Notes: a model not told the origin generated them from the letters alone. Positions 345-18,900 are shown, counted from the stretch's first letter. The stretch is 64,000 nucleotides of DNA from Paenibacillus chungangensis (GCF_042675905.1 NZ_JBHTJZ010000011.1:54636-118635); one strand, 5' to 3'. Numbers and translations: made by a program.

Positions 345-1277
345 TTGCCTATGGACCCGCATGTCAAATCAAGCATCAAACGAAGGTTGCCGCGAATCGC
401 CTGGCCGTTCCATGCCATGCTCTTGCCCGCAATCATTCTTGCTATTCTGTTCAATTATCTTCCCATGTTCGGCGTCGTCATGTCCTTCCAGCACTTCAAG
501 CCGTGGACGGGCTTCTTGCACTCCGAATGGGCCGGACTTGAACACTTTCAGGCGATCTTCGAACGGGATGACAGCAGGCAAGTCATCTGGAATACCTTCA
601 TTATCGCTTCCCTGAAAATAGTGTTCATTATTGTCGTGCCCGTCACGTTCGCACTACTTCTGAATGAAGTGCGCAAGCTGGCTTTCAAACGCACAGTGCA
701 GACACTCGTCTACTTGCCTCACTTCCTGTCTTGGGTTATTCTAGGCGGCATTCTAGTCGATCTGCTGTCCCCGCAGTCCGGACTCGTTAACCGCATATTG
801 CAGGGCTGGTTCGGGCTTGAACCCATCTTCTTCCTGGGGGACGGCGACTGGTTCCGATTCACGGCTGTAGTCAGTCATATATGGAAGGAATTCGGCTACG
901 GCACCATTATCTATCTTGCGGCTCTCGGCAGCATCAATCCCAATCTGTATGAGGCGGCTGAGGTTGACGGGGCAAGCCGCTGGCAGCAGACGCTCTTCGT
1001 AACCCTGCCTGCCCTGGTGCCGATCATTATGGTGTGCACGACGCTGGAGCTGAGCAACATACTAAGCGCCGGCTTTGATCAGATATTCAACCTGTACAAT
1101 CCCATGGTATACAGCAAGGGGGATATTATCGATACATTCGTCTATCGGGTCGGCATACTAGACCAGCAGATGAGCTTCTCTGCAGCTGTCGGACTGTTCA
1201 AGTCCGTGGTCAGTCTCATTCTCGTCGTAGCCGTCTATTCTATCGCTTACCGTGCCGCTAATTACCGAATTTTCTAG
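345..1277 (+). CDS. Carbohydrate ABC transporter permease, LplB/MalF-like inner-membrane component
   Basis: 310 aa and multi-TM. Motif LPHFLSWVILGGILVDLL and a high-identity paralogue at 7757..8659, typical of LplB-type polysaccharide/aldouronate permeases. Confidence 0.85.
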   Translation: MPMDPHVKSSIKRRLPRIAWPFHAMLLPAIILAILFNYLPMFGVVMSFQHFKPWTGFLHSEWAGLEHFQAIFERDDSRQVIWNTFIIASLKIVFIIVVPVTFALLLNEVRKLAFKRTVQTLVYLPHFLSWVILGGILVDLLSPQSGLVNRILQGWFGLEPIFFLGDGDWFRFTAVVSHIWKEFGYGTIIYLAALGSINPNLYEAAEVDGASRWQQTLFVTLPALVPIIMVCTTLELSNILSAGFDQIFNLYNPMVYSKGDIIDTFVYRVGILDQQMSFSAAVGLFKSVVSLILVVAVYSIAYRAANYRIF

Positions 1278-1287
1278 GAGGCAAGCT

Positions 1288-2166
1288 ATGTACTATAAAA
1301 CAAAGCCCTACCGCCTGTTCAGCGTATTGAACTACTTCATGCTTCTGTTCATTGCCGTCCTGTGCATGCTGCCGCTGTGGCACACGCTGGCCGTATCCTT
1401 AAGCGGAAGAGCGCCGGCCAACGCTAATCTCGTCACACTGCTGCCGATAGACATCACTTTGGACGCTTATCGGAAGACATTGGCCAATCCCGACTTTCTG
1501 CAGTCGCTCGGCATCGCGTTTCAACGAACGATCGTCGGTACGCTATTCGGCATGATCGTTATCTTCCTGGCCGCTTATCCGCTGTCGAAGACGAAAGGCG
1601 CATTCCGCACTAGATCGTTCTACTCCTGGTTTTTCATTATTATTCTGCTGTTCAACGGAGGACTGGTACCCACCTATATCGTCGTGCAGAAGCTGGGACT
1701 CATGAACTCCCTATGGGCGCTCATCCTGCCTTCCACAGTCAACGTCTGGCTACTCATTCTGATGATGAGCTTCTTTCGCGGCGTACCGCGGGAACTGGAA
1801 GAAGCCGCGCTCATCGACGGAGCGGGACAATTCCGAATTCTGCTGACCATATTCCTGCCGATCTCGATGCCGGCCGTTGCCACCTTGTCGCTCTTCACGA
1901 TGGTCTTCCATTGGAATTCCTGGTTCGACGGCCTCATCTACATGACGAGAGCGGAGAAATACCCGCTATCCACTTTTCTCCAGACTATTCTGGTCCAGAT
2001 TGACACCTCCCAGCTCGGCACTGCGAGCCGGGATCTGGAGAACATCTCGAACAAAACAGTGAAAGCTGCGCAAATTTTTATCGGAGCCTTGCCGATTCTG
2101 GCCGTCTACCCGTTCCTGCAAAAGTACTTTGTAAAAGGTATGGTGCTGGGGGCGATTAAGGAGTAA
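1288..2166 (+). CDS. Carbohydrate ABC transporter permease, LplC/MalG-like
   Basis: AGGAGG SD at 1277..1282 then ATG at 1288. Multi-TM protein paralogous to 8689..9567, with conserved EAALIDGA motif. Confidence 0.85.
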   Translation: MYYKTKPYRLFSVLNYFMLLFIAVLCMLPLWHTLAVSLSGRAPANANLVTLLPIDITLDAYRKTLANPDFLQSLGIAFQRTIVGTLFGMIVIFLAAYPLSKTKGAFRTRSFYSWFFIIILLFNGGLVPTYIVVQKLGLMNSLWALILPSTVNVWLLILMMSFFRGVPRELEEAALIDGAGQFRILLTIFLPISMPAVATLSLFTMVFHWNSWFDGLIYMTRAEKYPLSTFLQTILVQIDTSQLGTASRDLENISNKTVKAAQIFIGALPILAVYPFLQKYFVKGMVLGAIKE

Positions 2167-2175
2167 AACAAGAAA

Positions 2176-2237
2176 AACCGCTTCCGGCGGCTGCATTGAA
2201 GATTGCTCAACTTCATTGCATCGGAAGCGGTTTTTTT
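2176..2237. terminator. Bidirectional rho-independent terminator between convergent genes
   Basis: Stem ccgcttccg(2178..2186)/cggaagcgg(2222..2230) with an inner gcattgaag/cttcattgc stem, followed by TTTTTTT at 2231..2237. Confidence 0.6.
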
Positions 2238-2263
2238 CCTGTTTGTTAAATATTATTTGAACA

Positions 2264-5200
2264 TCATTCTTTTACAGACACCGCTTGTATGGCCCCATAA
2301 GCCCAATGATTGGAAGGTACATCATTCCATATCGGTGCCCCATCTGCATCAGGTTCAATACCCAGCAGCTCATTCATCATCTTGACGGCTTCGGCTCTTG
2401 TCAAGGACTGATCGGGACGGAATGTGCCGTCCATATAGCCGCTTATGACACCAAGAGCCTGCAGCTTCGCAACCGTCTCCTCCGACCAGTGACCATCCAT
2501 ATCAGAGAATGCCGCGGAAGAGCTATTCGCGCTTGACTCAAGTACACCGGCTACAGCAACTCCATTGATGGCTGCTCTGCTCTCTTGCTCCGCGCTTTCA
2601 ATCAGCTGCAGCAGCACGGTTGCCATTTCTGCGCGCGTTATCGCCCTGTCCGGCTTGAAGCCTCCATCGGGATATCCCTTCATCCATTGCAATTGAATCG
2701 TCTGCAGCACGGATGAATGCGCCCAGTGACTTCGTGGAACATCGTCGAAGAATACTCTGTCTTCAGATGGACTGCTTCCAGCATCTGTATCACTGCCGGC
2801 AATGCGCGAGAGCATGGCTGCGACTTCCGCACGCGTGACAGGGTTATTCGGTCGGAAGGTTCCGTCTTCATAGCCATGCATATACTTTGGAACAGCTGCA
2901 ACCTCTACCTCTTGCCAGCCTTGTACTTGAACCATTGTGAACACGCTGAATGAATCGACTTCAATTCGCAATCCCTTCTGGCCCGAGCGATTCATATCTA
3001 CGACTTCACCGCCTACAAGAGACCTGCTGCCGTCACTATGCTCAATATATACGCCTAGTTGTCCCCATTCCGCTTCATCGTACACATCCGGGTCAATAGG
3101 CAACGTTAACATAACAAGCTTGCCCTGCAGATTGGTCTCGATTCTGATGGGACGGCCAATTGCTTCAATCCCTTCATTCCGTTCAACCTCTGCAATTGCC
3201 TCATCAGTATTGGCTCTGCTCTCAATAGCCATTTTCTCGTCATCCGAGCGCAGCGGCGTAATTCGGAAGTAGATGCCCTCATTCAACTGCTGCAACGAAG
3301 CTGCCGGAATAACCACCTTCACATTGCCATTGGCAAGTACAAGCTCGACATCCGCTTCAGATAGCAGCTGCGCCGCTTCCTGATCGATGTTGAATAGCCA
3401 TTCGCCGACTTCATCTTCTTCGTCAGGCATCGGTATAACCGCGACTTTAGAACCACCTCCGGCACTGTCAAGTCGTTCGATTATTTCTTTTGTCTTCTGC
3501 TCATCCAGATGAAGCTCATCTTGTATTGTCCCGTTCGATTGCTTCGTCCGTATAATGCTCAGCTTCACGCCTGGACGTTCATCCTGTTCGCCATCGGCAC
3601 CAACGGTGACTTCAATCGTCTCCCCAAGCGTTCCTCCAGTCGAAGACGATCCGCCGCGCCCCCCTTCCTTAGTTGTAACCGTAAGCTGAATCGTATTCGA
3701 CTCCACCGACATGCCATTCAACTTCACGGTAGCGAAGAGTTCGGTTGAGCCCGCTTGCATGGCCGTAACGACGCCCTCACCGTCTATACTTGCCACTACC
3801 GGATTGCCGACTGTATAGCTAATCTCCGCGCCGGACAAGTCCTTCGTCGTGCGATCCTTCTCCAGCAGACCGAGCAATTCAATCTTGGTCGTCTCGCCTA
3901 CCTCAAGCTCAGCCGCTTCAATCGACAGCTCTGCGCCTGTCAGCTTCAAGATCAGCTCATCAATAGTGTACTTATATAAATTAGGAGACTCCGGATCGGT
4001 ATACATATAGAAGCTGCCGAAGTCATCTTGTGCAAGCTTGCGCACTCCGGAAGCCAATACGGTAACTTCCTTCGTCGCAGCATCTACCTTAAAGAACTTC
4101 CCGGCGACTGTGGCATATACATTGCCGTCCGTGCCCGTCTCCATCGAACCGTCGATCCAACGGCCGACCGCTCCCGGGAATGCGTTCTGGCTATGAATGA
4201 CTTGTCTCGTCACAGTATCGAAGATGAACAACTCACCGTTAGCCAGCCCCCATACATTGCCGTCCGGTCCGAGATGCAGAGCGGTAATTGCTTGTCTGCC
4301 CGGCGCAGGCACCGTCTCGAACACAATCTCCTTATTCAGCACATCCCATACGAACAGTCTCGCTTCAGTCGCTGTCGGCACACCGCCCTGTCCGCCATGA
4401 ATGGACGTGCCGCCATACAGAAGCCCATCCTTGTATACCAAGGAGAGAACGCTCTGGTTCGGTATTATATTCTCGTATACTTCAGGCTCGCCGCGCTCTT
4501 TCAGATCATAGACCGCCAACGCTCCGCCCAGCATGCCGTTCTTCGGCACTGTACCGACGAATAGCTTGTTGTAATCTTCCGCGCCCGCCATTCCGAATGG
4601 CCGATCCTGATTCAAGTCGCCAAGTGTGAAGAGGCGATTCGGATTCAGCTTGTCGGCGTTCGTGCGGTTCCATGGCTGCGCCAGATCGTATTCCATAATC
4701 GACGCGCCGGGATATACGCCAAGATAGAGCTTGTTATGAATAACGGTCATGCCTTCGCCCTGGCCGATGCCTTCATAATACATACTGTCGCCCGTGGAAG
4801 GGGTATATACGCCGAGATTGCCTTGCAAGTAACCGGCTGTATAGATTTTTCCATCCGGTCCTTTCACAATCTCATGGATGTTGACAGGTTCTGCCGGCAC
4901 TTGAATATCGGTCAGCCTGACCGCTCCCGTCTCCAGGTTGTACTTGAACATCTTCCCTGAATTGCCGGATAAGCCGACAAGACTATAACCCGGGAAGCCC
5001 GCTTCATTCAGCTCCACGAACGCATAGCCGATTGCCGCGCCTTCAATGGAAGCGCCTGTCGAACGATAGCTATTCGTATCCAGATCATATTCGAACAATT
5101 CACCGCCAGCCCCGGCGAAGTAAAGCTTGTTCGCAACCGGAGACACCGGCGACATGCCGCGCGAGAAATTAATGAACGTCGTCGACTTCTCGCCTGTATC

Positions 5201-7528
5201 GGCGTTCGTCACCTCGACCAGGTCGCCGCTCGCAATATCGACAACGAATGTTTCGTTGCCGTTGTTCGCTTCCTTGCGTGCGAACAATCGGCCATCGGCA
5301 AGATTAAGATCATAGACGGATACAATGTTTTCGAAGCCAGCGGGAAGCAGGTCGCGCTTGGCCCCTGTCGCCAAATCGTACTCCAGCAGCCGGGGTACAT
5401 TGCCTACACCGGCGTAGATCTTATGTGTCTCCTCATCGTACACGGTCACTCGCGTCCAGCGTTCACCGCTCGTAAGTGTCGACATCGTTCCGTAATCGGT
5501 ATAGGCATTCGTCGAAGGATCGTACGCATACAGATGCGCAGTCGGATACGTACTGCCGTACATGACGCCGTCCTTCCCTGCCGCCATCGGATAAAGCACG
5601 GAATCCTTCGTAGAGAGAGGATGTCCCAGATTAACCAGTTCGTCCGTTGACGGAATATAGCGATATAGCAAGCCCAGATTATAGGCGCCCATATATACCG
5701 AACCGTCACTTGACATCGTAACCGACCATGCGCCGGATGTATCAGGCATCGGAATGCTCTTGACAACTTGCTCGGTCTCAATATCGATCATAGTGAATAT
5801 GGACGGAGCCCCCGCCACAACGGAGTAGACCACATCTCTTCCCTCTCCATCCTTGCCGACAGCGCCGCGCATCATGGTCGCCTTGCGAATTTGCGGTCCC
5901 AGATTTTCTCCGAGGATCGTGATGGAATCTTCCGGAAGCGGCTCTTCTTTCATCTCGTGATTGCCGCGCATCAGCTGAATATTATCGATATAATAGGAAT
6001 ACGTTCTACGATCACTGCCGGCGAACAGAATCGCGGCATAATGCGCTCCCTCCGGCGCTTCAGCTACAATATACTGATCGAACCATTCGCCGAATGGCTC
6101 GCCTGCAATGTTCCAGCTTTGTTTATTCATATACGCACCGTTCTCATCGAAGAAGCGTAAGTACATATCCGCCGAGCGCGTCTCGACCAGGCTGCGCGAT
6201 ACTGCGGTGTAGGTCGCCCCGGCTTCGACGGGAATGAGATCACTGATTACATTGATGTATTGTCCCGGCGTATTCTTAATATGGAGACTGTATTCTCCTT
6301 CATCCTTGTACTCACTTGACAGTGTGAACGAGTCAGCATCAGCCGGCTTCGTCTTGCTCCAGCCAGGAATGACGCCATCTGATACCGGTTGTTCGAAATT
6401 ACCGTTGACCACTTGCTTCAGGACGCTCACTTCATCCACATAGAAGGTGAAGGAGCGTTTGGCTCCGGTTATAAGCGCAACCTTAAGCTTCGCACCGCCC
6501 GGCTGCACTGTGAACGCTTGCTGAATATATTTCCATTTGCCATCGGGTTTTGTCTCCGCTGCGTACATATGGAAGTCTTTGTTATCCGCGCTTTTCACCA
6601 GCTCACCGTTCTTGTCGTACACATACACGTAGAAACCTTGAATCCCGCCAAGCTCAAGCAACACTTGCGCCGAGAACACATAAGTCGCATTCTCCTCCAC
6701 ATCCATCAGATCAGATTCAATGTTGATCGCGCTTTGGCCCTGGTTCTCCACCAAGTGCAGCTTCAGACTGTTGTTACCGACAGCCGCCTGCTCGGAGCTG
6801 ACCGTCGGCGTTCCCGACTTGATTGTCCAATTGGGGATCATGCTGTCGGCGCCGCTTTCCTCAAAGCTTGCATTAGCAAGGAAGCGCACAGGATCGGAAG
6901 GCTCCGGTTCCGGTTCTTCAGGGACTGCTTGCTTCGTGACCACCATATTGTCCCAATAGCTCACGCCTCTTGAAGATTTCGCGTTAACCACAACAACGGA
7001 AGCGCTCACAGCTTCTGCCGGGGCGATATCGCTGACCGTTATCGTTTGCCATACGTTCGTCGGCGCATTTTGATAGTTGTCATTATGTGTTTTAATCGGT
7101 TGCAAGAGCACATCGTTTTCTCCATAATAACGGATTTGCAATTGAATATTAGAACCGCTGCCAATATAGACAGAAGAGGTTACGGTGTATAATTTTCCTT
7201 TTTCAACAGCGAACTTGTCGCTGTCCATGCCAAATAGTGACGTATTGTCGTTATCGGTTATTTTCAGACTCCAATTTCCTTCAAGTACATTCGTGGAATC
7301 GACGGTAACCGATCCATTTTTACCTACGCCAAAGTTTTGCGTCCAGCCCGGTATTGCTCCGTCTACCTCTCCCTCCTCAAACCCGAAATTAAACAGCTCC
7401 TCTTGTATAACCGGAGGTTGGGCCAATTCCGCCCGCACCGCAGCTTGCGGTGTTCCAGCCATAGAAAGCGCTACCATAACCATACATAAAAAGACAATAA
7501 ACGACTTCCCCCTACCTGTAAAGCGCAC
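2264..7528 (-). CDS. Giant S-layer-anchored surface protein: signal peptide, 3 CBM4/9-like modules, about 700-aa beta-propeller, Big_2 domain, Gly-rich linker, unknown domain, 3 C-terminal SLH domains
   Basis: Open frame of 1,760 aa. Signal peptide (M)RFTGRGKSFIVFLCMVMVALSMAGTPQAAVRA. SLH motifs FDDVPRSHWAHSSV, FSDMDGHWSEETV and WNDVPSNHWAYGAIQ. Big_2-like stretch ELSIEAAELEVGETTKIELLG. A probable GTG start at 7528 is preceded by GGGAGAGAGG, and the track ORF extends to a TTG at 7546. Confidence 0.8.
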   Translation of the reverse strand: MRFTGRGKSFIVFLCMVMVALSMAGTPQAAVRAELAQPPVIQEELFNFGFEEGEVDGAIPGWTQNFGVGKNGSVTVDSTNVLEGNWSLKITDNDNTSLFGMDSDKFAVEKGKLYTVTSSVYIGSGSNIQLQIRYYGENDVLLQPIKTHNDNYQNAPTNVWQTITVSDIAPAEAVSASVVVVNAKSSRGVSYWDNMVVTKQAVPEEPEPEPSDPVRFLANASFEESGADSMIPNWTIKSGTPTVSSEQAAVGNNSLKLHLVENQGQSAINIESDLMDVEENATYVFSAQVLLELGGIQGFYVYVYDKNGELVKSADNKDFHMYAAETKPDGKWKYIQQAFTVQPGGAKLKVALITGAKRSFTFYVDEVSVLKQVVNGNFEQPVSDGVIPGWSKTKPADADSFTLSSEYKDEGEYSLHIKNTPGQYINVISDLIPVEAGATYTAVSRSLVETRSADMYLRFFDENGAYMNKQSWNIAGEPFGEWFDQYIVAEAPEGAHYAAILFAGSDRRTYSYYIDNIQLMRGNHEMKEEPLPEDSITILGENLGPQIRKATMMRGAVGKDGEGRDVVYSVVAGAPSIFTMIDIETEQVVKSIPMPDTSGAWSVTMSSDGSVYMGAYNLGLLYRYIPSTDELVNLGHPLSTKDSVLYPMAAGKDGVMYGSTYPTAHLYAYDPSTNAYTDYGTMSTLTSGERWTRVTVYDEETHKIYAGVGNVPRLLEYDLATGAKRDLLPAGFENIVSVYDLNLADGRLFARKEANNGNETFVVDIASGDLVEVTNADTGEKSTTFINFSRGMSPVSPVANKLYFAGAGGELFEYDLDTNSYRSTGASIEGAAIGYAFVELNEAGFPGYSLVGLSGNSGKMFKYNLETGAVRLTDIQVPAEPVNIHEIVKGPDGKIYTAGYLQGNLGVYTPSTGDSMYYEGIGQGEGMTVIHNKLYLGVYPGASIMEYDLAQPWNRTNADKLNPNRLFTLGDLNQDRPFGMAGAEDYNKLFVGTVPKNGMLGGALAVYDLKERGEPEVYENIIPNQSVLSLVYKDGLLYGGTSIHGGQGGVPTATEARLFVWDVLNKEIVFETVPAPGRQAITALHLGPDGNVWGLANGELFIFDTVTRQVIHSQNAFPGAVGRWIDGSMETGTDGNVYATVAGKFFKVDAATKEVTVLASGVRKLAQDDFGSFYMYTDPESPNLYKYTIDELILKLTGAELSIEAAELEVGETTKIELLGLLEKDRTTKDLSGAEISYTVGNPVVASIDGEGVVTAMQAGSTELFATVKLNGMSVESNTIQLTVTTKEGGRGGSSSTGGTLGETIEVTVGADGEQDERPGVKLSIIRTKQSNGTIQDELHLDEQKTKEIIERLDSAGGGSKVAVIPMPDEEDEVGEWLFNIDQEAAQLLSEADVELVLANGNVKVVIPAASLQQLNEGIYFRITPLRSDDEKMAIESRANTDEAIAEVERNEGIEAIGRPIRIETNLQGKLVMLTLPIDPDVYDEAEWGQLGVYIEHSDGSRSLVGGEVVDMNRSGQKGLRIEVDSFSVFTMVQVQGWQEVEVAAVPKYMHGYEDGTFRPNNPVTRAEVAAMLSRIAGSDTDAGSSPSEDRVFFDDVPRSHWAHSSVLQTIQLQWMKGYPDGGFKPDRAITRAEMATVLLQLIESAEQESRAAINGVAVAGVLESSANSSSAAFSDMDGHWSEETVAKLQALGVISGYMDGTFRPDQSLTRAEAVKMMNELLGIEPDADGAPIWNDVPSNHWAYGAIQAVSVKE

Positions 7529-7588
7529 AATCCTCTCTCCCTTCAAAATAATGTTTGCCTTGAAAAAATAGTGAACATACCTTTACAG

Positions 7589-7605
7589 ACATGTATATTA
7601 CATGT
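7589..7605. promoter_or_regulatory. Perfect palindrome acatgta-tat-tacatgt in the divergent control region; candidate operator
   Basis: 7-bp arms, reverse-complementary, with a 3-nt centre, between the giant SLH gene start and the ABC operon. Confidence 0.2.
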
Positions 7606-7701
7606 ATGCGCAATTGGAAGTCAAGCTTTATTTTCTATCAACTTTCTCCCAAATAATTTTACCGAAAATATTGACAGTCCATGAAATATGGATTAACTTA
7701 T

Positions 7702-7721
7702 ATACAGGTAAAATACAGGTA
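7702..7721 (+). promoter_or_regulatory. Direct repeat ATACAGGTA x2 between a putative promoter (TTGACA at 7671) and the SD of permease 7757
   Basis: ATACAGGTA at 7702..7710 and again at 7713..7721. SD AAAGGGAGG at 7734..7742. Confidence 0.2.
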
Positions 7722-7756
7722 TTGAAGTTGGTAAAAGGGAGGCTTTCGCAGGCAAT

Positions 7757-8659
7757 ATGAGCAAACTACTAAACAGAATGAAACGCGAGCGATATATTTA
7801 CTTACTGCTTCTTCCGGGAGTTTTGTATTTTATTCTATATCGTTATGTGCCGATGGCCGGCTTAATTATCGCATTTCAGGATTATAATCCGTTCGCCGGC
7901 TTCAAAGGCAGTGAGTGGATTGGACTCAGTCACTTTACCCGAATGTTTGAGAGCAGCGAAGTCATTCAAGTATTGGTGAACACCATACAAATCTCATTGC
8001 TGCAAATCTTTGTCGCGTTTCCGGTATCCATCATACTGGCTCTCATGCTTAACGAAATGCGCAACGAATTGTACAAACGTTTTATTCAATCCATGATTTA
8101 CTTGCCTCACTTCTTGTCTTGGGTAGTCGTTGTTGGCATCTTCGTCGTTTTCTTGCGTGGCGAAGGGCTGGTCAACTCACTTCTTGCAAGCTTTGGATTG
8201 GAAGCGATTCCTTTTCTAACAGATCCGTCCTACTTTAAACCCATTATTATTATTCAGGTGATTTGGAAGGAAGCTGGATGGGGCACGATTATATTTTTGG
8301 CAGCGTTATCAGGCGTCAATCCTTCCTTGTACGAGGCTGCCGTCATCGACGGCGCCAATCGCTGGCGGCAGCTGTGGCATGTTACCTTGCCGGCCATTCG
8401 CAGCGTAATCGTTATTTTGTTCATCCTTCGTCTCGGTAACGTCATGGATACCGGATTTGAACAAATCTTCCTCATGCTCAATCCCTTCAATATGGATGCG
8501 GGCAATGTGCTTGATACTTATGTTTATTTTAAAGGCATACAGCAAGGCAATATCGGATTTGCAACTGCGGTCGGAATGTTCAAGGGGTTGGTCGGTCTTG
8601 TGCTCGTACTGGGAGCCAATAAATTGGCCAAACGGTTTGGAGAAGAGGGACTTTATTAA
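7757..8659 (+). CDS. Carbohydrate ABC transporter permease, LplB-like
   Basis: 300 aa and multi-TM. LPHFLSWVVVVGIFVVF motif, paralogue of 345..1277. Confidence 0.85.
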   Translation: MSKLLNRMKRERYIYLLLLPGVLYFILYRYVPMAGLIIAFQDYNPFAGFKGSEWIGLSHFTRMFESSEVIQVLVNTIQISLLQIFVAFPVSIILALMLNEMRNELYKRFIQSMIYLPHFLSWVVVVGIFVVFLRGEGLVNSLLASFGLEAIPFLTDPSYFKPIIIIQVIWKEAGWGTIIFLAALSGVNPSLYEAAVIDGANRWRQLWHVTLPAIRSVIVILFILRLGNVMDTGFEQIFLMLNPFNMDAGNVLDTYVYFKGIQQGNIGFATAVGMFKGLVGLVLVLGANKLAKRFGEEGLY

Positions 8660-8688
8660 CCTGGATCAGGAAGAAGGCGACAACTTTT

Positions 8689-9567
8689 ATGATAAAAAGA
8701 ACACCACTAGATCGGGCTGTCGATTGGATCAATATTATTCTTCTTACGATTGCAGCCGGATTCATGCTCTTGCCGTTCGTTCATATTTTTGCAGTTTCGT
8801 TCTCATCCTTGCAGGATGTGCTTCAGAAGGACTTTATTCTATGGCCTACGAACTGGGCTATTGAGTCATACCAAGCAATTTTCGCATCCAATTCCTTCAT
8901 CCGTTCTATACTAGTCACCATCTATATTACGGTTATCGGGACGGCAGTCAGCTTGTTCTTGACGTCCACGATGGCTTACGGGCTTACTCGCAATGTCATT
9001 GGACAGCGAGTGGTGTTGCTTCTAGTCATTTTCACGATTTTGTTCAATGCAGGCATGATTCCTGTCTATCTCATCGTAAAGGAAACTGGATTGATGAATA
9101 CGCTATGGGCGCTCATTATCCCCAGTGCGATCAGTTCCTTCAACCTCATCGTCATCAGACAGTTCTTCCTCAGTATTCCAAGCGAACTGACAGAAGCTGC
9201 CCTAATCGACGGCGCCAGTGAGATGAAGACGTTCTGGTCCATCATCCTGCCGTTGTCCAAACCGGCACTGGCCACATTCGGCTTGTTCTATGCCGTAGGT
9301 CATTGGAACAAATACTTTGAGGGCATTCTTTACTTGAACGATGCAGCCAAATGGCCCGTGCAAGTCGTATTGCGACAGATCGTCATTATGAACGAAGCAA
9401 CCTCGACCCTGGGCGCTGATGTCATGCTGCAGTTCGAGAACCAGCCCCCGCCGGCTACCATTCAGATGGCTGCCATATTAGTGGCGACCTTGCCGATTCT
9501 ACTTGTCTATCCATTCTTGCAGAAGCATTTCGCCAAGGGGGTGATGATTGGCTCCGTGAAAGGCTAG
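8689..9567 (+). CDS. Carbohydrate ABC transporter permease, LplC-like
   Basis: 292 aa and multi-TM. EAALIDGASEMKTFW motif, paralogue of 1288..2166. Confidence 0.85.
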   Translation: MIKRTPLDRAVDWINIILLTIAAGFMLLPFVHIFAVSFSSLQDVLQKDFILWPTNWAIESYQAIFASNSFIRSILVTIYITVIGTAVSLFLTSTMAYGLTRNVIGQRVVLLLVIFTILFNAGMIPVYLIVKETGLMNTLWALIIPSAISSFNLIVIRQFFLSIPSELTEAALIDGASEMKTFWSIILPLSKPALATFGLFYAVGHWNKYFEGILYLNDAAKWPVQVVLRQIVIMNEATSTLGADVMLQFENQPPPATIQMAAILVATLPILLVYPFLQKHFAKGVMIGSVKG

Positions 9568-9640
9568 AAGCTTCGGAATTCAAGTACATGTATCGCGTTT
9601 GAAGAGAACAACAAATCACGATTCGGAGGGGATCATTTCC

Positions 9641-11251
9641 ATGCACAGGTACGTTAAAAAGTCACTTGTCCTGTTAGCACTCACGATGGCAGTAACGGCA
9701 TGCTCCAACAATAACACGCCGCCGACTGGAACAGAAAAACCCGCGGGCGGAGCAACTGCAGAGCCGACCGCTGCGGCCACCGAAAAGCCGGAAGAAACGT
9801 ACAAAATTACAGGAGCGACTTATATATTCGGCAACCCGCCACCGAAAGACGGCCGCGGTCAACAAATGCTGAATGAGAAGTTCAATGTTGACTACTTCGC
9901 GGAGAAAATCCCGAATGACAATTTCGTCGAGAAAATAACGGCTATGGTTGCAGGCGGCAATATGCCGGATCAAATCAGCTTCCGCGCGGCCAATATCGAC
10001 CTGTTCAATCGCTGGGCCAAGCAGAACGCCTTCTTGCCGCTGAACGACTACATTGAGGAATTCGACTACTTGAAAGAAATTCCTGATGAGCTATGGCTTC
10101 CATTCACCGTGGACGGCAAAATCTATGGTATTCCAACCTGGTCTCCTGTCGAGTCGCAATCGTTCATGGTGCGCAAGGACTGGCTGGACAATCTCGGCCT
10201 TGAAGTCCCGACAAGCTATGAGGAATTGAAGGAAGTGGCGATCGCCTTCACCAATGGTGATCCCGACAAGAACGGTCAGAACGATACTTACGGTCTGGCT
10301 ATCGGACAGAACATTAACCCTACTTTCTCCATGGGGCCATATTGGCAGCATGATACCTGGTACCATCAGGATGCGGAAGGCAACTTTCTTCCAGGCTTGA
10401 TCTCCGATGGCAGAAAAGAACTCATTCAATTTTTTAGCGACCTTTACGCAGAGAAAGCGTTGACAAGCGATTTTGCCGTCGTCAACTGGGCCGACACCAA
10501 CAATGAATTCTACTCCGGCAAAGCGGGAGCGTTCCTGATCGCAGTCCGTGGAATGTCGCAAGATTATATGAAGACATTGCTTGAAATTAATCCGGGCGCA
10601 GAATTTGTCGTGCTGGAACCGTTCGCAGCGCCAGACGGCTCACAAGGCTTCTCCGCAGGACAGGGTTATGGAAGAATGCTTGCCCTTAATGCGAAGCTGG
10701 CCGACAATCCGGACAAAGTGCGCAAAATGCTGGAAATTCACGGCTTCTCGCGCAACTATTATCAAGCTTCCAAAAACTCTTCCGACAATGAAGATTTCGA
10801 CTGGTTCTACGGCAATGAAGGTACCGGCTATACGCTTGACAAGAACAACACACGCGTTCCATTGAACGAACCTGCTGCCGGGGTTGAGCCGTTCTTATAC
10901 TTCCTAGACAGTACAGCATGGATCTCCGCCGATGACGATGCGGAATACCCGCGTGCCTATTCGGAGCCTAAGCTAATTGAAGCTACTCAGCAGCTTGTTG
11001 ACATTAATAAAAAGTACAAACTATACTACCCGCCGCATGTCGGCATCATCTCGCCTGCCGAGATTGAGTTCGGTCCTGAATTGACGCAAATGTTAATGAA
11101 TGAGCAAACCAAAATGATTACAGGCAATCGTCCTATCTCGGATTGGGATGCGATGGTAACAGAATATATGGATCGCGGCGGCAAAAAAATCATTGAAGAG
11201 TACAACGCCGAGATCAAAGCAAGAGGTTATAGCGATCGAATTTGGAAATAG
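9641..11251 (+). CDS. Extracellular solute-binding lipoprotein (LplA/family-1 SBP-like)
   Basis: GGAGGGG SD then ATG at 9641. [25 protein letters not shown] lipobox. About 535 aa, typical of an oligosaccharide-binding protein. Confidence 0.8.
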
Positions 11252-11256
11252 GACCA

Positions 11257-11293
11257 ATATGTTGGGCTCTACAAAAGCCCAACATATTTTTTA
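11257..11293 (+). terminator. Rho-independent terminator after the SBP gene
   Basis: 12-bp perfect stem atatgttgggct/agcccaacatat, 7-nt loop, then TTTTTT. Confidence 0.7.
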
Positions 11294-11330
11294 TCCACTA
11301 TCTCCATTACTTCAACAAAAGGTTGTGACA

Positions 11331-13031
11331 ATGATGCCTGCAGCAGCTCGATTAGCCGTATGGATTGATAAGGAAACACAAAAGCATAGACACCGATATG
11401 GCGTCAACGTCTTTCAAAATAATATTCGAGAAATGCTCTCTCACTCCGGGTTCACCTATACCGTTCTGGAAAGTGCAGAACAAATCACTCGTCAGGAAGC
11501 GGATATTGTCATTGCCGCATTGGTTAGCGAGCGAGAAGAAGATATGACGCTTCTCAAGCAATTCATGCTGGAAGGAGGCACCGTAATATCTTACGCAGGA
11601 ATGACCCCGCTTGCCGCCGAATTATCTTGCACGCCGATGAGGCCGCTGCCTGTCGGCTACGCCGAGCTGCACACTGGCTGGTATGAGGACGTTCCTCTAC
11701 GTTGCTTTGATAGCCGACCTTGGGAACTGGCAGATGCCACTGATGCTTCGGTCTCACAGATCGGGACGCTTCGTCAGGATCATCCCGAAGGATTGCGCTG
11801 CGGTATGCTGCTGCAAAGCTTCCAAGTCGGCGAGGGTAGACTGGAGCGCTGGGCTGTTGATATTCCCGCAACTGTAGTAAGACTACAGCAGGGCAGCATG
11901 CCGATCGTATCAGATGGTCTTCCGGCGCCGGATGGAACAGGCGCTGTAAATGACTGGATTCTGAAAGCCGACGACGATGTGCAGCAGGACTGGGAATACG
12001 ATCGCCTGTCTACCGAGACGGGAATGGCGTACTTCGCTCATCCTTATGCCGACTTATGGAAGCAAGTCATCGCCGGACATTTGATCACAGTCGCTGCCGA
12101 ACAGGGTCTCATTCTGCCATTCGTCGATTACTGGCCAGACGGTGTCGATCGCATCGCTATGATCTCGCATGACAGCGACCTTAATATCGACGAGGCGGCG
12201 GAGATTACGCTGCAAGTGTTGAAGGAACACGATGTGCAGAGTACATGGTGCATGATCGAACCGGGGTTCTCCCCGCATCTCTATGATCAGATCAAAGCAG
12301 ACGGTCATGAGCTTGCTTTGCATTACAACGCGCTGGAGAAAGACAATGGCTTCTGGGACGAACAGGAATTCGTCAGGCAGTTGGAATGGTTCCTGTCTGC
12401 TGCAGATGTCCCGCAGTCCGAATCCAATAAAAATCATTATACACGCTTTGAAGGCTGGGGCGAGCTGTTCGACTGGTGCGAGAAACACGGCATTGCATCC
12501 GATCAATCAAGGGGGCCCAGCAAAAAAGGAAATATCGGTTTTACATTCGGAACATGCCATCCTTACTTCCCTATCGCCTGGTCCGATCAACAGAATCGCA
12601 TGTACGATGTATTGGAGATCGGCTTCCTCACCCAGGATCTGGACCATAGCACGTTGGCCGACAGCAGTGTCATTGCGCCATTCCTGGAAGGGGTCAGCAA
12701 GGTGAGCGGGGTCGCACATTTCTTGTTTCATCAAACGCATATTTTGGAGCAGCCCAAGGTTCGCGAAGCCATCATGAAAGTGATAACAGAATCGAAGCGT
12801 CGCGACTTCCAATTTTGGACTGGACGTCAAATCAATCATTGGGTCCGCGCAAGACGACAGCTTCGCTTCGAAGGCATAGATAAGTGCGGAAATATGCTGT
12901 ATGATAACCCCGCGAGCATCAGCGGCGCTGTTGTATGGACCCCGCTTCTTGCGGAAGATGCGGCACGGCTCGAGCCTGATCATGTTCAATTGAAATTCGG
13001 CTTGCCTTGCAGGAAATCGATAATCGAATAA
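11331..13031 (+). CDS. Two-domain protein: N-terminal class-I glutamine-amidotransferase-like fold plus C-terminal polysaccharide deacetylase (CE4/NodB-like)
   Basis: Probable start [13 protein letters not shown] after the terminator (the track ORF from 11193 runs back through it). Deacetylase-like stretch [38 protein letters not shown]...HELALHYN. Confidence 0.5.
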
Positions 13032-13053
13032 ACGCAGATGAGGTGAAGTCCAA

Positions 13054-14295
13054 GTGAAGCTTTCGCATAAACTCGCCATTCATGGTGGAGAAAAAACAAA
13101 GAAAAATCCTTTCGGCACCGGAAAACGATTCGGTGCTGAGGAAGCGCAGCAGTTATTAGAAGCTTTGGAGCAAAACACATTATTCTATCATTTCGGAAGC
13201 AAGGTAAAACAATTTTTGTCCGACTTCAATACCATGTACAGTGTTCCATATAGCGTTGCCACCTCGTCAGGGACAGCCGCTTTACACGTAGCGCTTGGCG
13301 CTGCCGGAGTGTCTGTAGGGGATGAGGTGATTACAAGTCCGATTACGGATCAAGGCACAGTTATTGGCATTTTGTATCAAAACGCCGTTCCTGTATTCGC
13401 TGATCTGGAGCCCTATTCATTTAACCTGGATCCCAAATCCATTGAGGCGTGCATCACTCCGCGAACGAAGGCGATCGTCGTTGTCCATCTGGCGGGCAAC
13501 CCATGCGATATGGACCCCATTATGGAAATTGCCAGAAAATATAATGTAAAAGTAATCGAAGACTGTGCGCAGGCATACTTGACCAAATATAAAGGCAGAC
13601 TCGTCGGTACGATCGGTGATTATGGCTGCTTCAGCACGAATGATTTCAAGCATATCTCGACAGGAGACGGCGGCATTGTAACCGTCAATTCGGGAGATGA
13701 GGCAGATTACCACCTTACGCATGCTTTCGCCGATAAAAACTATAAACGTCTGGGCAATGATCTGAACCGAATGCCTGAGAGCCTCGCGCCCAATTATCGG
13801 ATGACAGAACTGCAAGGCGCAGTTGGCATCGCGCAGCTAACAAAAATGGAATGGATATGTGAACAAAGAACCCGATTCGGCAATGCCATTAATGAAGGTC
13901 TGCAAGGCTTGAAAGGGTTGACCCCCATGCAGGTGGCAGCAGATAATACTTGTACTTATTGGTTCTACATGTTCCGGCTGAACGAAGAAAATCTAAACTG
14001 TACCCGCGAGCAATTCTGCGACGCCCTGCATGCGGAAGGCATTACGAATCGCATGGGCTATATCCCTGACGTCGTCTATATGCAGCCCATGTTTCAAAAC
14101 AAGCAAGCTTATTTGAACAGCCAGTTTCCTTTCGACTTGACTGACACGACTTATAAGAGAGGCGATTGCCCGGTTGCGGAAGCGATTTTGCAAACGGCAG
14201 TGCAAGTGCCGATTAGTGAATTTTACACGAAAGAAGATATTGCGGAAGTTATTGCGGCCATACGCAAAGTAACCTTATACTTTCAGAAACTGTGA
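13054..14295 (+). CDS. DegT/DnrJ/EryC1/StrS-family PLP-dependent sugar aminotransferase
   Basis: GTG start with GAGGTGAAG SD. Motifs GDEVITSPITDQGT and STNDFKHISTGDGG (PLP lysine). 413 aa. Confidence 0.8.
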   Translation: MKLSHKLAIHGGEKTKKNPFGTGKRFGAEEAQQLLEALEQNTLFYHFGSKVKQFLSDFNTMYSVPYSVATSSGTAALHVALGAAGVSVGDEVITSPITDQGTVIGILYQNAVPVFADLEPYSFNLDPKSIEACITPRTKAIVVVHLAGNPCDMDPIMEIARKYNVKVIEDCAQAYLTKYKGRLVGTIGDYGCFSTNDFKHISTGDGGIVTVNSGDEADYHLTHAFADKNYKRLGNDLNRMPESLAPNYRMTELQGAVGIAQLTKMEWICEQRTRFGNAINEGLQGLKGLTPMQVAADNTCTYWFYMFRLNEENLNCTREQFCDALHAEGITNRMGYIPDVVYMQPMFQNKQAYLNSQFPFDLTDTTYKRGDCPVAEAILQTAVQVPISEFYTKEDIAEVIAAIRKVTLYFQKL

Positions 14296-14314
14296 GAAAA
14301 GGGAGAGCGGTTCA

Positions 14315-16192
14315 ATGAGCTTTACTGATCTGGGCATTCCTGTAGATGCGGTGGAATCGAGAACCGGGGCCGTATGCGTGAACTCCGCAGGCGACAGCCG
14401 CATCGTCATAGCTGCAAAAGGCTTCTTGCTCGTAGCGGACCCCGTATCGGGGGATTGCCGGCAGTTGTTCTTCCCCGACCATCATTCCGAATATCCATAC
14501 GACACTTTCAGCAGCCGATGCGGCATGCTTTATGTGGGAGCCGGCAACAGATTTTACGTCTTCGATCCCTTCCGGCTCCACTATATAGACACGCTGTTCG
14601 CTGACGATGAGAACGAGCTCTGCGGCTTCAGCTACGCGGAGAATGAAGAAGGACATATCTACATGACTTCTTACCCGCAGAGCAAGCTTTACCGTTATCG
14701 ACCCATTGAACGGGACTTCGTCTGTATGGGCAGTATGGATCCAGAGCAAAAATACCCTTCGCACATGGCTGTTGATGCCTACGGCTGGGTTTATATAGGT
14801 ACGGGTACAACCAAAAAAAACATTGTCGCCTATCACCCTGCAGACAGCTCGACTCCTCGATCCCTGCTTCCAGATGAGCTCAGAACGATCGGCATCGGCG
14901 TCGTCAGACAAGCCGGTGCGCCTCAGGCGCCCTGCAATCGGGTATACGCTCAATTAGGCGAGCAATGGGTGCTGCTGGAGCAAGGGGGGATCGTCGGGCA
15001 TGTGCGCGATGAGGAGGTCCCCGCCTCCTCATACAACGGAGCCAGCTTCGCGAAGTTCCATCGCCAGCTTCCCGGAGACTGGGAGCTCATTAGCCACAGT
15101 CTATCGAATAGGGAACTGCTATTGCGTCACCGCCATACCGGGCAAGCAAGGCGGATAGAGCTCCGCTATTCATCGGAGGGAGCGGCGCTGTCGCCGATTG
15201 TCGCCGGAGCGGATGGCTGCTTGTACGGCACGTCTAACCATCCGCTGCATTTCTTCACCTATCAACTGGTTGACCCTACTGGAGAATCCTCACACGATTC
15301 CCAAGCCGGAGATTCTTCCAGACTGCACAATCTGGGGCCTAGAATCGTAAAGGGCGGCAATCTGGCCGCTTATGCCGTGCAGAGGAATATTCTCGCAGGC
15401 GCTGCGTACCCTGGCGGAGGGCTGTATCTCTTCGACACATCGAAGCCATTGCATTCGGCGAATGCCGAGCCGAACGGTACGCTTGATGGCTTGCACAACC
15501 CGCGACTCGTCACCGAGCATATCGAAATTCATCGTCCCAGATGCGCCATTGCGCTGCAGGACGGTGAACATATCGCTTATGGCGGATTTCCGGGCTACGG
15601 CATGGTCGGCGGAGCACTATGCGTCTACCATCTGCCTACTGGCAAGGATCATCTTCTGCTGCATACGGAGCTGGTTCCCAATCAGAGCACAGTCTCTCTT
15701 GTCGAGACAGCTCCCGGCATTCTAATTGGCGGCACGAGCGTTGAGACGCCGGGCGGAGCGGAGCCACTATCGCCGACAGCGCGCCTATATATGCTTAATT
15801 GGAAGGAACGTGACGTGATGCGGATCTGGAAGCTTCATGACCGGATTCGCGAATATTCCCATCTTCTGATGGATGCAAGAGGCAGGCTGCATATCCTGAC
15901 CTCTTGCTCCACTTATTATGTGTGGGACCCCGTGCATGAATCCATTGTGTGCGAGGAAGACCTGTCGGCATGGGGGACTGTTGTCAGACAAGGCTGGGAG
16001 ATGAGCGAAGAGGACGATTGCATATACGGGGCGCTCAGCCAGGCTCTATTCCGCATCCCGCTTAGCAGCATGAAGCCCGAACGAATAGCCATCCCTCCAG
16101 GCCATGTTACAGCGGGCTTCGTCAAGCATAACACGGAGTTGTATTTTGCAATCTCCACCCATTTATGGAGATACACATTGCCAAAGAGGTGA
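14315..16192 (+). CDS. Cytoplasmic beta-propeller protein, paralogous to the propeller module of the giant SLH protein
   Basis: No signal peptide. Shared blocks LYRYRP versus LYRYIP, and LVPNQSTVSLVETAPGILIGGTSVETPGGAEPLSPTARLYMLNW versus IIPNQSVLSLVYKDGLLYGGTSIHGGQGGVPTATEARLFVWDV. Confidence 0.6.
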   Translation: MSFTDLGIPVDAVESRTGAVCVNSAGDSRIVIAAKGFLLVADPVSGDCRQLFFPDHHSEYPYDTFSSRCGMLYVGAGNRFYVFDPFRLHYIDTLFADDENELCGFSYAENEEGHIYMTSYPQSKLYRYRPIERDFVCMGSMDPEQKYPSHMAVDAYGWVYIGTGTTKKNIVAYHPADSSTPRSLLPDELRTIGIGVVRQAGAPQAPCNRVYAQLGEQWVLLEQGGIVGHVRDEEVPASSYNGASFAKFHRQLPGDWELISHSLSNRELLLRHRHTGQARRIELRYSSEGAALSPIVAGADGCLYGTSNHPLHFFTYQLVDPTGESSHDSQAGDSSRLHNLGPRIVKGGNLAAYAVQRNILAGAAYPGGGLYLFDTSKPLHSANAEPNGTLDGLHNPRLVTEHIEIHRPRCAIALQDGEHIAYGGFPGYGMVGGALCVYHLPTGKDHLLLHTELVPNQSTVSLVETAPGILIGGTSVETPGGAEPLSPTARLYMLNWKERDVMRIWKLHDRIREYSHLLMDARGRLHILTSCSTYYVWDPVHESIVCEEDLSAWGTVVRQGWEMSEEDDCIYGALSQALFRIPLSSMKPERIAIPPGHVTAGFVKHNTELYFAISTHLWRYTLPKR

Positions 16193-16197
16193 CATAA

Positions 16198-17237
16198 TGA
16201 GCTATCAGCTATCACAGCTTTCCGAAGAGACCTTCCCACATCTTCTCAATGGTATTGCTGACCCGACCGCATGGGAAGCGAAGCGAGACCGCATTGCCGA
16301 AGTATGGCGCCAATACATCGGATGGATGCCTGATCGCGTGCCTTCCTCTTATACGGTTCATTCCGAGCATAGGGAAGGGGATCATATCCGCATTCATCTA
16401 TCCTATGAGACTGCTTATCGCGATCTCGTCTACGCCTATTTGCTAATTCCTATCAAGAACGCAGCAAGCGAGTCGACGGAATCACAGCGGTATCCGGCTG
16501 TATTGGCGCTTCATCCGACCGATAGCAGAGGCAAGGCCGATATCGCGTTAAGTACGGGGAGAGAGGGACGTCAGTATGCGCTTGAGCTTGTAACCCGGGG
16601 ATATGTCGTGCTGGCCCCTGACACCATCGCGGCGGGAGAGCGCATCTATCCGGGTACGGCAGCGTTTCAGACTGCACCGTTCTATGAACAATTTCCAGAA
16701 AGCACCGCAGTAGGTAAAATGATTCATGACCATAAACAAGGCATTGACCTGCTGCAGTCGCTCCCTTATGTGGACCCGGACCGGATCGGCGCCATCGGTC
16801 ACTCACTCGGAGCATATAACGCTTATTTCCTGGCGGCCATGGATGACAGAATAAAAGCTGTCGTATCCAGCTGTGGATTTTGCCCATTCCTGTATGATCC
16901 CGATCCGAATCGTTGGGGACAGCGCGACTGGTTCTCTCATTTCCCTAGGTTAACCAATGCTATTCAAGAAGACCGGATTCCGTTCGAATTCCATGAAATA
17001 ATGGCACTAATGGCGCCGACACCTATATTCAACTGGTTTGCTCAACAAGACAAAATATTTCCGAACTGGCACGCCGCCGCATTTGCTTCAATGGACATTC
17101 ACCGCTTATATCAATGGATGGGACGAGCAGACGCTTACATCTCTTTAATGGGCTGTGAAGGTCATGATTTCCCCAAGCATATTCGACCCGTAAGCTATCA
17201 ATTTCTTGATCACTGGTTAAGGAATTATGATGTATAA
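16198..17237 (+). CDS. Alpha/beta hydrolase (dienelactone hydrolase/esterase-like)
   Basis: AAAGAGGTG SD then ATG at 16198. Nucleophile elbow GHSLGA in IGAIGHSLGAYNAYFL. Confidence 0.65.
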
Positions 17238-17299
17238 TGTATATATCATTAGTCCATATAATGGATAAAAGCTGATTTAGATTTAGGAGCGGATGGATT

Positions 17300-18801: not shown

Positions 18802-18900
18802 AAAGCAATAATTGCTTGAGGAAGCACCTCTGAAGATACGAGACACCTGTGTGTTTCTTCTTTAGGGGTGCTGTTCATATTGAGGGGGATGTTGATTGAT

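Follow-up and report, generated by a model that had tools for sequence, protein, structure and literature searches.

Two related beta-propeller proteins, one displayed at the cell surface and one cytoplasmic, were analyzed in a stretch of 64,000 nucleotides from the soil/sediment bacterium Paenibacillus chungangensis (GCF_042675905.1, NZ_JBHTJZ010000011.1:54636-118635), referred to below as the window. The first is a giant surface protein of 1,760 aa (2264..7546, minus strand), and the second is a protein of 625 aa (14315..16192, plus strand). Both are assigned, by homology and predicted fold, to one large uncharacterized family of tandem double beta-propellers, and the genes around them form a cassette that has, to judge from its predicted products, the logic of a Gram-positive polysaccharide-utilization locus. 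As far as sequence can tell, the propeller pair are the best candidates for an undescribed family of glycan-cleaving enzymes. The interpretation favored here, held tentatively and at slightly less than an even chance, is that of a conserved Bacillales locus for the utilization of an acidic N-acetylated glycan, in which the propellers would be the bond-cleaving enzymes, probably lyases.

Paralogy, fold and relatives of the two propellers

A sequence-only reading of the window had proposed that the two proteins were paralogues, a claim that by its own account would fall on weak alignment statistics. All of the motifs that it quoted were found in both translations (LYRYIP/LYRYRP, IPNQSVLSLV/VPNQSTVSLV, GGTSI/GGTSV, and ARLF/ARLY), and the similarity was far beyond chance by BLASTP and by hhalign. 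BLASTP aligned residues 840-1075 of the giant protein with residues 242-502 of the small one (26% identity over 263 aa, E 2e-16). When an alignment of 53 homologues of the 625-aa protein (A1) was compared by hhalign with one of 117 propeller regions from homologues of the giant protein, the probability was 100% and E was 1e-99 over 596 columns. Since this alignment spanned the whole of the cytoplasmic protein (1-625) and residues about 539-1205 of the giant, the paralogy is real and full-length.

The AlphaFold2 model obtained with A1 was all-beta (pLDDT 93.4, pTM 0.91) and had about 51 strands, which were read as about 13 blades, the N-terminal strand closing the last one. Instead of the single propeller of about 700 aa described by the sequence-only reading, the model therefore contains a tandem double propeller, and the profile-profile alignment transfers this fold to the giant protein. 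Fold searches returned only generic 7-bladed propellers, tandem WD40 proteins and the glycan-sensor domains of Bacteroides hybrid two-component systems (HTCS). In the PDB, Foldseek matched proteins with two propellers in tandem (Aip1, Utp and EML-type proteins, PorZ, and the sensor domains of BT4663 and BT4673), at a TM-score of only ~0.38; the WD40 proteins among them had 9-13% identity at that score. By itself, the predicted fold would assign no function.

The 625-aa protein, a "hypothetical protein" of P. chungangensis (100% identity), opens straight into propeller sequence with no hydrophobic leader, and its translation thus agreed with the earlier statement that it lacks a signal peptide. 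The N-terminus of the giant protein was judged to be a Sec signal peptide by reading the translation, not by a dedicated predictor (...FIVFLCMVMVALSMAGTPQAAVRA; hydrophobic leader with an AxA site). It is followed, all on the minus strand, by:

5957..7414: three CBM_4_9-type carbohydrate-binding modules (CBMs), residues about 45-530 (Pfam CBM_4_9, E 5.7e-18, three stretches)
3932..5932: extracellular tandem double beta-propeller, residues about 539-1205 (hhalign against the cytoplasmic family)
3719..3919: Big_2-like Ig domain, residues 1210-1276 (Pfam Big_2, E 0.0096, 16.3 bits, below the cut-off of 22.8)
2777..3679: residues about 1290-1590, ~300 residues between the Big_2-like and SLH domains in which Pfam had no match
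2279..2749: three SLH domains, residues about 1600-1756 (Pfam SLH, E 2.3e-37, three stretches; Sap SLH domains in the PDB, E 2.5e-8)

Hence, Pfam confirmed the three CBM-like modules and the three SLH domains described earlier; a match to the Big_2 domain was also present, but it was weak and below threshold. The CBM region also resembled NTTRR-F1 and the Mep72 C-terminal domain (NCBIfam). With a signal peptide and three SLH domains the giant is an SLH-anchored surface protein, the latter domains being its predicted cell-wall anchor.

The cytoplasmic subfamily comprised 92 close homologues, nearly all from Bacillales and all unnamed. The extracellular subfamily comprised more than 168, mostly secreted proteins of 650-1150 aa from Bacillales, actinomycetes and a Pontibacter. 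When 1.84 billion representative proteins were searched in full by HMMER for matches to the A1 profile, 3,206 of them scored E<=1e-3; the stricter limit of E<=1e-30 left 859. The propeller of these relatives was joined to CBM_4_9, Big_2, FIMAH, HL_N-beta, PKD, SLH or Laminin_G_3 (lectin-like) domains; no known catalytic domain was found beside it in the extracellular homologues, and in the multi-modular relatives it was the only non-accessory module. Two natural fusions were detected: P0345 joins a cytoplasmic-type propeller to an orthologue of the hydrolase encoded next to it in the window (32% identity to the window hydrolase, E 9e-48), and P0474 combines a propeller with the C-terminal domain of heparinase II/III. 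The genomic contexts of distant secreted members (Pontibacter, Nonomuraea, P. lautus) showed no consistent partner. A few secreted members (P0190, P0191, and P0211) carried cohesin domains, and two of them (P0190 and P0191) also dockerin; such proteins may, from their domains, be components of cellulosome-like assemblies.

Searches of Pfam, NCBIfam and PDB sequences, with the single sequences and with the two family profiles, gave no significant family assignment for either propeller, and the 625-aa protein had no match at all in these collections. Membership of polysaccharide lyase (PL) and glycoside hydrolase (GH) families was judged by phmmer and by family-profile hmmsearch against all PDB chain sequences, in which solved structures exist for PL11, PL24, PL25, and PL42. 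The comparison with PL11/PL22/PL24/PL25-type families that the sequence-only reading had called for was made on these sequences and by fold search, and it yielded no family assignment. No PL chain matched the cytoplasmic family at E<=10, nor did anything carbohydrate-active; the sole PL match of the extracellular family profile (A3) was PL22 3pe7 (E 0.17). Significant similarity to the propeller lyases PL11, PL22, PL24, PL25 or PL42 was thus not found, and no GH74 chain appeared among the PDB sequence matches at E<=10 or the top fold matches.

The significant matches in the PDB were HTCS sensors: 3ott/3va6 (sensor domain of BT4673, E 6e-9) and 3v9f (E 1.3e-5) with the A3 profile, and 4a2l (E 0.0014) with the cytoplasmic-family profile. 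This similarity was at the level of the blade repeat and not collinear (query 292-398 against chain 81-176). By sequence, therefore, the nearest solved relatives of the propellers appear to be non-catalytic glycan sensors. Reg_prop matches were found by Pfam in several homologues and in neither of the window proteins, in which the same scan detected no Y_Y_Y, membrane span, histidine kinase, receiver or HTH_AraC modules.

Neither propeller fell into a PQQ dehydrogenase or lactonase family; by its own account, the sequence-only reading would have been refuted had both confidently done so. Membership of Vgb or SMP-30/gluconolactonase-type families was not supported, and faint similarity to PQQ_2 (BamB-type, E 0.004-0.09) was present in some homologues only, not in the window proteins. 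DUF6923 (PF21959; gathering score 27 bits) did not match either window protein at E<=0.1; the homologues P0067, P0068, and P0190 scored 27.5-38 bits against it. No published characterization of a family member was found in the literature, and no paper found mentioned DUF6923.

The conserved cassette and its genes in the window

To place the propellers in context, 58 genome loci with a gene for a relative of the cytoplasmic propeller were compared by clustering all flanking open reading frames (ORFs) and drawing maps. The loci span Paenibacillus, Psychrobacillus, Bacillus, Neobacillus and others, and the order of the cassette genes was nearly invariant: extracellular propeller, CE4-like protein, DegT aminotransferase, cytoplasmic propeller, hydrolase, fusion of a GntR regulator and a solute-binding protein (GntR-SBP), in some loci a heparinase II/III-like protein, DUF624 and permeases. 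The frequencies in the 58 loci were:

alpha/beta-hydrolase, immediately downstream of the cytoplasmic propeller: 49
ATP-binding cassette (ABC) permease A: 49
ABC permease B: 46
GntR-SBP regulator/binding-protein cluster: 49
CE4-like protein: 39
DegT aminotransferase: 38
leaderless heparinase II/III-like protein, ~757 aa: 27
DUF624: 18
secreted propeller paralogue within 10 kb: 26

The earlier view that the outside-plus-inside pair is typical of polysaccharide utilization was strongly supported by these results, with the pair recurring in 26 loci and the cassette conserved. The gene content of 2264..18748, together with the same cassette in the 58 loci, is that of a Gram-positive polysaccharide-utilization locus, and look-ups of individual homologues gave the same picture. 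The secreted propeller was the only conserved secreted protein of the cassette. Besides the propeller, no cassette gene able to cleave glycosidic bonds was found in the present window or in 31 of the 58 loci. The cytoplasmic propeller was retained without the hydrolase in three loci (L025, L029, and L056) and is hence not an obligate subunit of it.

No GH or PL family was detectable by Pfam or NCBIfam in any gene of 345..18748, in agreement with the sequence-only reading as regards glycoside hydrolases. Its statement that no lyase can be recognized held for the window, from which the heparinase II/III-like gene was absent by tblastn, but not for the locus family, in which the 27 loci counted above carry this gene. 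Its product is cytoplasmic and distantly similar to PL35 and PL15 entries.

Two side observations were made on the maps. By ORF calling, two or three cytoplasmic-type propeller ORFs lie next to each other around 10001 in L048, L060, and L061, which may be tandem duplicates or one frameshift-split gene. Additionally, a glutamate dehydrogenase adjoins the cassette in three Paenibacillus-type loci (L001, 1781..3160; L010 and L011, upstream of the permeases), a position that would fit the recycling of 2-oxoglutarate for a catabolic transaminase.

In the window, the following features accompany the two propeller genes, which were identified from the ORF list, the translation, the Pfam scan and solved-structure SLH matches (giant) and from the AlphaFold2 model, the fold searches and homologues (625-aa protein). 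All are on the plus strand.

345..2166: ABC permease pair (two genes), on the far side of the giant gene (ORF list, Pfam)
7757..8659: ABC permease A (BPD_transp_1; Pfam E 8.8e-19)
8689..9567: ABC permease B (BPD_transp_1; Pfam E 1.2e-12)
9599..11251: large extracellular solute-binding protein, 550 aa (Pfam SBP_bac_1, E 2.4e-13)
11256..11288: strong hairpin with a T-run after it (stem of 13-15 bp; scan for terminator-like sites)
11334..13031: ThuA/GATase1-like plus CE4/NodB-fold deacetylase, 565 aa as annotated (ORF open from 11193)
13054..14295: DegT/DnrJ/EryC1-family, pyridoxal phosphate (PLP)-dependent sugar aminotransferase (Pfam E 5.4e-88)
16197..17237: alpha/beta serine hydrolase, 346 aa (Pfam DLH, Peptidase_S9, GCE_fung; ORF open from 16104)
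17300..18748: GntR winged-helix plus solute-binding-protein-like fusion (Pfam GntR, E 3.3e-10; SBP_bac_8, E 1.1e-18)

The giant gene diverges from the plus-strand run 7757..18748. The two Lpl-type ABC importers that had been placed between the propeller genes were reduced to one, composed of two permeases and the 550-aa binding protein (7757..11251). Between this importer and the cytoplasmic propeller lie the genes for the CE4-fold deacetylase and the DegT aminotransferase, on both of which the earlier description was silent. The permease genes at 345..2166 end 98 nt from the stop of the giant gene. The hairpin starts 5 nt past the stop of the binding-protein gene, ahead of the CE4-like gene; from its position it is possibly an intra-operon terminator or mRNA stabilizer, which could lift expression of the binding protein relative to the enzymes. 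The total number of terminator-like sites in the region was not above shuffled expectation. The GntR-SBP fusion is the probable regulator of the locus, and the position of its gene was conserved in the related loci.

The product of 11334..13031 is cytoplasmic, with an N-terminal ThuA/GATase1-like domain and a C-terminal deacetylase domain of CE4/NodB fold that has the Asp-Asp, His-His, Arg-Pro, and Leu-x-His motifs. The DegT enzyme scored below every NCBIfam equivalog cut-off, and its best PDB matches were the sugar aminotransferase 7b0m and perosamine synthetase. For the hydrolase, the ATG at 16197, with a ribosome-binding site, is the likely start. The nucleophile motif of the protein is GHSLG, many of its arginines are conserved, and it weakly resembles CE15 glucuronoyl esterases (OtCE15A in the PDB, E about 4e-7).

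The genes for the CE4-like protein, DegT and GntR-SBP were also found without propellers in other Paenibacillus loci (L066, 7102..11701; L067, 9064..14501), and this trio thus behaves like a separable module for amino sugars. In L067 it stands beside two GFO/IDH/MocA oxidoreductases, an AP_endonuc_2 TIM barrel (isomerase-like), a second aminotransferase and an alkaline ceramidase, and in L066 a GH78 rhamnosidase and a further ABC system lie nearby.

Just downstream of the cassette, past a Uma2-family gene (18868..19509), the minus strand encodes a sulfatase (19696..21117), whose C-terminal domain is of the N-sulphoglucosamine-sulphohydrolase type, and a transporter of the major facilitator superfamily (21162..22373). 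Neither is conserved beside the cassette in related loci. As a hint at a sulfated substrate the sulfatase was rejected, being on the other strand, beyond the Uma2 gene and not conserved.

Possible functions of the propellers

When 53 cytoplasmic and 117 extracellular sequences were aligned jointly, the positions conserved at >=80% in both subfamilies were Y73, D154, Y160, D300, N349 (Q929 outside), Y365, D374, N395-P396, R407, Q457-S458, and T474. Y365 (Y945 in the giant) reached 100% in both subfamilies, and R407 (R982 in the giant) 98% in the cytoplasmic and 100% in the extracellular one. Q929, E931, Y945, Q980, and R982 were invariant in the extracellular set, and the cytoplasmic set added conserved H309, H406, R409, E513, and R558. 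Placed by the DSSP strand map of the AlphaFold2 model rather than in three dimensions, most of the conserved residues would lie in the D-to-A and B-to-C loops of blades 7-10, on the "top" face, where the active or binding sites of propellers usually are. This set of Tyr, Arg and Gln/Asn, with or without His, resembles the active sites of lyases.

The homology, the fold, the domain architecture, the conservation of the cassette and the gene fusions are established by the analysis; catalysis, the class of substrate and the type of reaction are inferred. A catalytic role is the best single explanation because nothing else able to cleave glycosidic bonds is encoded in the window and the 31 loci, and because the propeller is the sole conserved secreted protein. 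It is further indicated by an arrangement of modules like that of enzymes, by polar residues that do not vary and by the retention of the cytoplasmic propeller where the hydrolase is missing. The depolymerase or lyase of undescribed fold suggested by the sequence-only reading is thus plausible, although no catalytic family matched. Pointers to an acidic N-acetylated glycan come from heparinase II/III as a partner and in a fusion, from the likeness of the hydrolase to CE15 esterases, from conserved sites rich in arginine and from the pairing of CE4 with DegT; the substrate would be a uronic-acid-containing glycan with N-acetylated amino sugars, for example a bacterial wall or capsule polymer, and the chemistry of the propellers beta-elimination rather than hydrolysis. 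The location of the CE4/DegT pair in a cassette with an importer and a regulator implies that it is presumably catabolic.

The following pathway is proposed. The surface copy, held to the wall by its three SLH domains and to the substrate by its three CBM_4_9 modules, would cut the extracellular polymer into oligomers, which the ABC system would import and the cytoplasmic propeller would cut further. The alpha/beta-hydrolase would strip ester substituents and the CE4-fold enzyme N-acyl groups, and the DegT enzyme would transaminate the freed amino sugar to a keto sugar. Deacetylation followed by transamination would be a suitable route for amino sugars in which phosphorylation at C6 is not possible, for instance aminuronic acids or 6-deoxy amino sugars. 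A further-reaching proposal, which taken as a whole is doubtful, is that the propellers constitute a new family of carbohydrate-active enzymes (CAZymes), likeliest a PL family on a Reg_prop-like double propeller with surface endo-acting and cytoplasmic oligomer-acting forms. It would also include a new catabolic route for an N-acetylated amino sugar or aminuronic acid barred from NagA/NagB: the CE4 enzyme would take off the N-acetyl group and DegT would then deaminate the product, enabling Bacillales to consume acidic wall or capsule glycans.

Several observations weigh against enzymatic propellers. Neither sequence nor fold matched a catalytic family. Significant similarity to solved proteins was confined to the HTCS glycan sensors, which are non-catalytic (3ott/3va6, 3v9f, and 4a2l), and Foldseek also returned BT4663, BT4673, and PorZ. 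A secreted copy was nearby in only 26 of the 58 loci. No conserved acid pair or metal site was located, with the residues mapped to the strand map only, and the invariants differ by subfamily, with E931 and Q980 outside against H309, H406, and R409 inside. Moreover, published characterization on which a catalytic role could lean was not found, and the substrate is deduced from the cassette.

The serious and main rival is a non-catalytic role, which we regard as somewhat unlikely. The propellers would be glycan-recognition modules of the Reg_prop/HTCS type, the surface copy serving, in the manner of surface glycan-binding proteins, to capture polymer at the S-layer and the cytoplasmic copy being a partner that gates the adjacent hydrolase or sets its specificity, like the propeller of prolyl-oligopeptidase (S9) enzymes. 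Besides the sensor propellers among the best solved sequence relatives and the Foldseek matches, the Reg_prop matches of several homologues favor this role, as do the adjacency of the cytoplasmic propeller and the hydrolase in 49 of the 58 loci, their fusion in P0345 and the Peptidase_S9 and DLH similarity of the hydrolase. Nevertheless, it would leave 31 loci and the present window without an enzyme for glycosidic bonds, and the three loci with a propeller and no hydrolase speak against gating. Polar residues strictly invariant across sequences of ~30% identity would be unusual in binding sites whose specificity varies, a binding-only module would make its three CBMs redundant, and the likeness to HTCS sensors is confined to non-collinear blade repeats.

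A less probable alternative is that the propellers are enzymes acting elsewhere than on glycosidic bonds. They could be a lactonase, an esterase or an eliminating enzyme for ester, lactone or amide substituents (Vgb-, SGL- or glutaminyl-cyclase-like), or act on the keto-sugar intermediate of the CE4-like and DegT enzymes. Some homologues carry faint SGL, Glu_cyclase_2 or "streptogramin lyase" labels, and the association of the trio with GFO/IDH/MocA oxidoreductases and the AP_endonuc_2 barrel in L067 points to keto-sugar chemistry. These similarities, however, are shared by 6-7-bladed propellers in general, and none reaches significance by sequence; a secreted copy with CBM and SLH domains cannot depend on cytoplasmic PLP chemistry, and the cassette already has a dedicated esterase-like hydrolase. 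It is very improbable that the locus serves a peptide-like or other polymer instead of a polysaccharide, with the propeller as a structural or protein-interaction scaffold. The best overall Foldseek matches are indeed eukaryotic tandem WD40 scaffolds, and M20 peptidase and MR/MLE genes occur in the vicinity of two members of the family. Nonetheless, the WD40 matches are of the low score and identity given above, and CBM_4_9, the CUT1-type sugar ABC importer, the CE4-fold enzyme, the DegT sugar aminotransferase and the heparinase II/III-like partner of related loci all point to carbohydrate.

If the propellers are enzymes, as in the favored interpretation, they would make up a large CAZyme family that is as yet unclassified, with a scaffold known until now from glycan sensing only, and the cassette would put CE4 and DegT enzymes to a catabolic use that is new. 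If they are binders, sensor propellers of the HTCS type would have been recruited in Gram-positive bacteria as surface capture proteins and cytoplasmic enzyme partners. Because it is fixed and widespread in soil and sediment Bacillales, the cassette offers a direct experimental handle on a glycan whose turnover is unassigned.

Comparison with known systems

The propeller enzymes of CAZy (PL11, PL22, PL24, PL25, and PL42; GH74; GH145) share the beta-propeller scaffold, which there is catalytic and acts on acidic or complex glycans, and pairs of outside and inside enzymes, a layout like that of the two propellers here, are typical of such pathways. However, no solved chain of these families gave a significant profile match (the PL22 match at E 0.17 was the best), none was among the top 50-60 fold matches, and their catalytic residues could not be aligned to the propellers of the window. 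GH74 enzymes consist of two 7-bladed propellers; only this gross architecture is in common with the present proteins. As to the DUF6923 (PF21959)/DUF5074 propeller repeats, many homologues of both subfamilies reach or come near the DUF6923 threshold, with 27-38 bits against the cut-off of 27, whereas the window proteins themselves do not; DUF6923 is itself uncharacterized.

The CE4-like and DegT enzymes recall ArnD and ArnB, the CE4-type deformylase and DegT aminotransferase of 4-amino-arabinose biosynthesis. Here, in contrast, the pair stands in a cassette of importer and regulator genes, the CE4-like protein has an extra ThuA/GATase1-like N-terminal domain, and no nucleotide-sugar or undecaprenyl machinery was found at the present locus.

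The HTCS sensors of Bacteroides (BT4663 and BT4673; PDB 4a2l/4a2m, 3ott/3va6, and 3v9f) are tandem propeller pairs like those described here and the only solved proteins significantly similar to them in sequence, and were also found by Foldseek. They belong to polysaccharide-utilization systems and recognize oligosaccharides, heparin/heparan sulphate in the case of BT4663, according to its entry title. Unlike them, the present propellers have no Y_Y_Y domain, transmembrane segment, histidine kinase, receiver or AraC output; one copy is cytoplasmic among enzymes and the other carries CBMs and SLH anchors. The window proteins reach no Reg_prop threshold, and the similarity stays at the blade repeat.

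In overall plan the giant protein is like the SLH-anchored multimodular surface glycanases of Paenibacillus, such as the CBM-GH10-CBM-SLH xylanases. Both have a signal peptide, CBMs, a large central module, one or more Ig-like domains and three SLH domains at a protein end. In ChiW of Paenibacillus strain FPU-7, another SLH-anchored multimodular surface glycanase, the SLH domains are at the N-terminus (PMC5132251). The central module of the giant is an uncharacterized tandem propeller instead of a known GH domain, and in the favored interpretation it would act, like these glycanases, as a surface-displayed enzyme feeding an importer.

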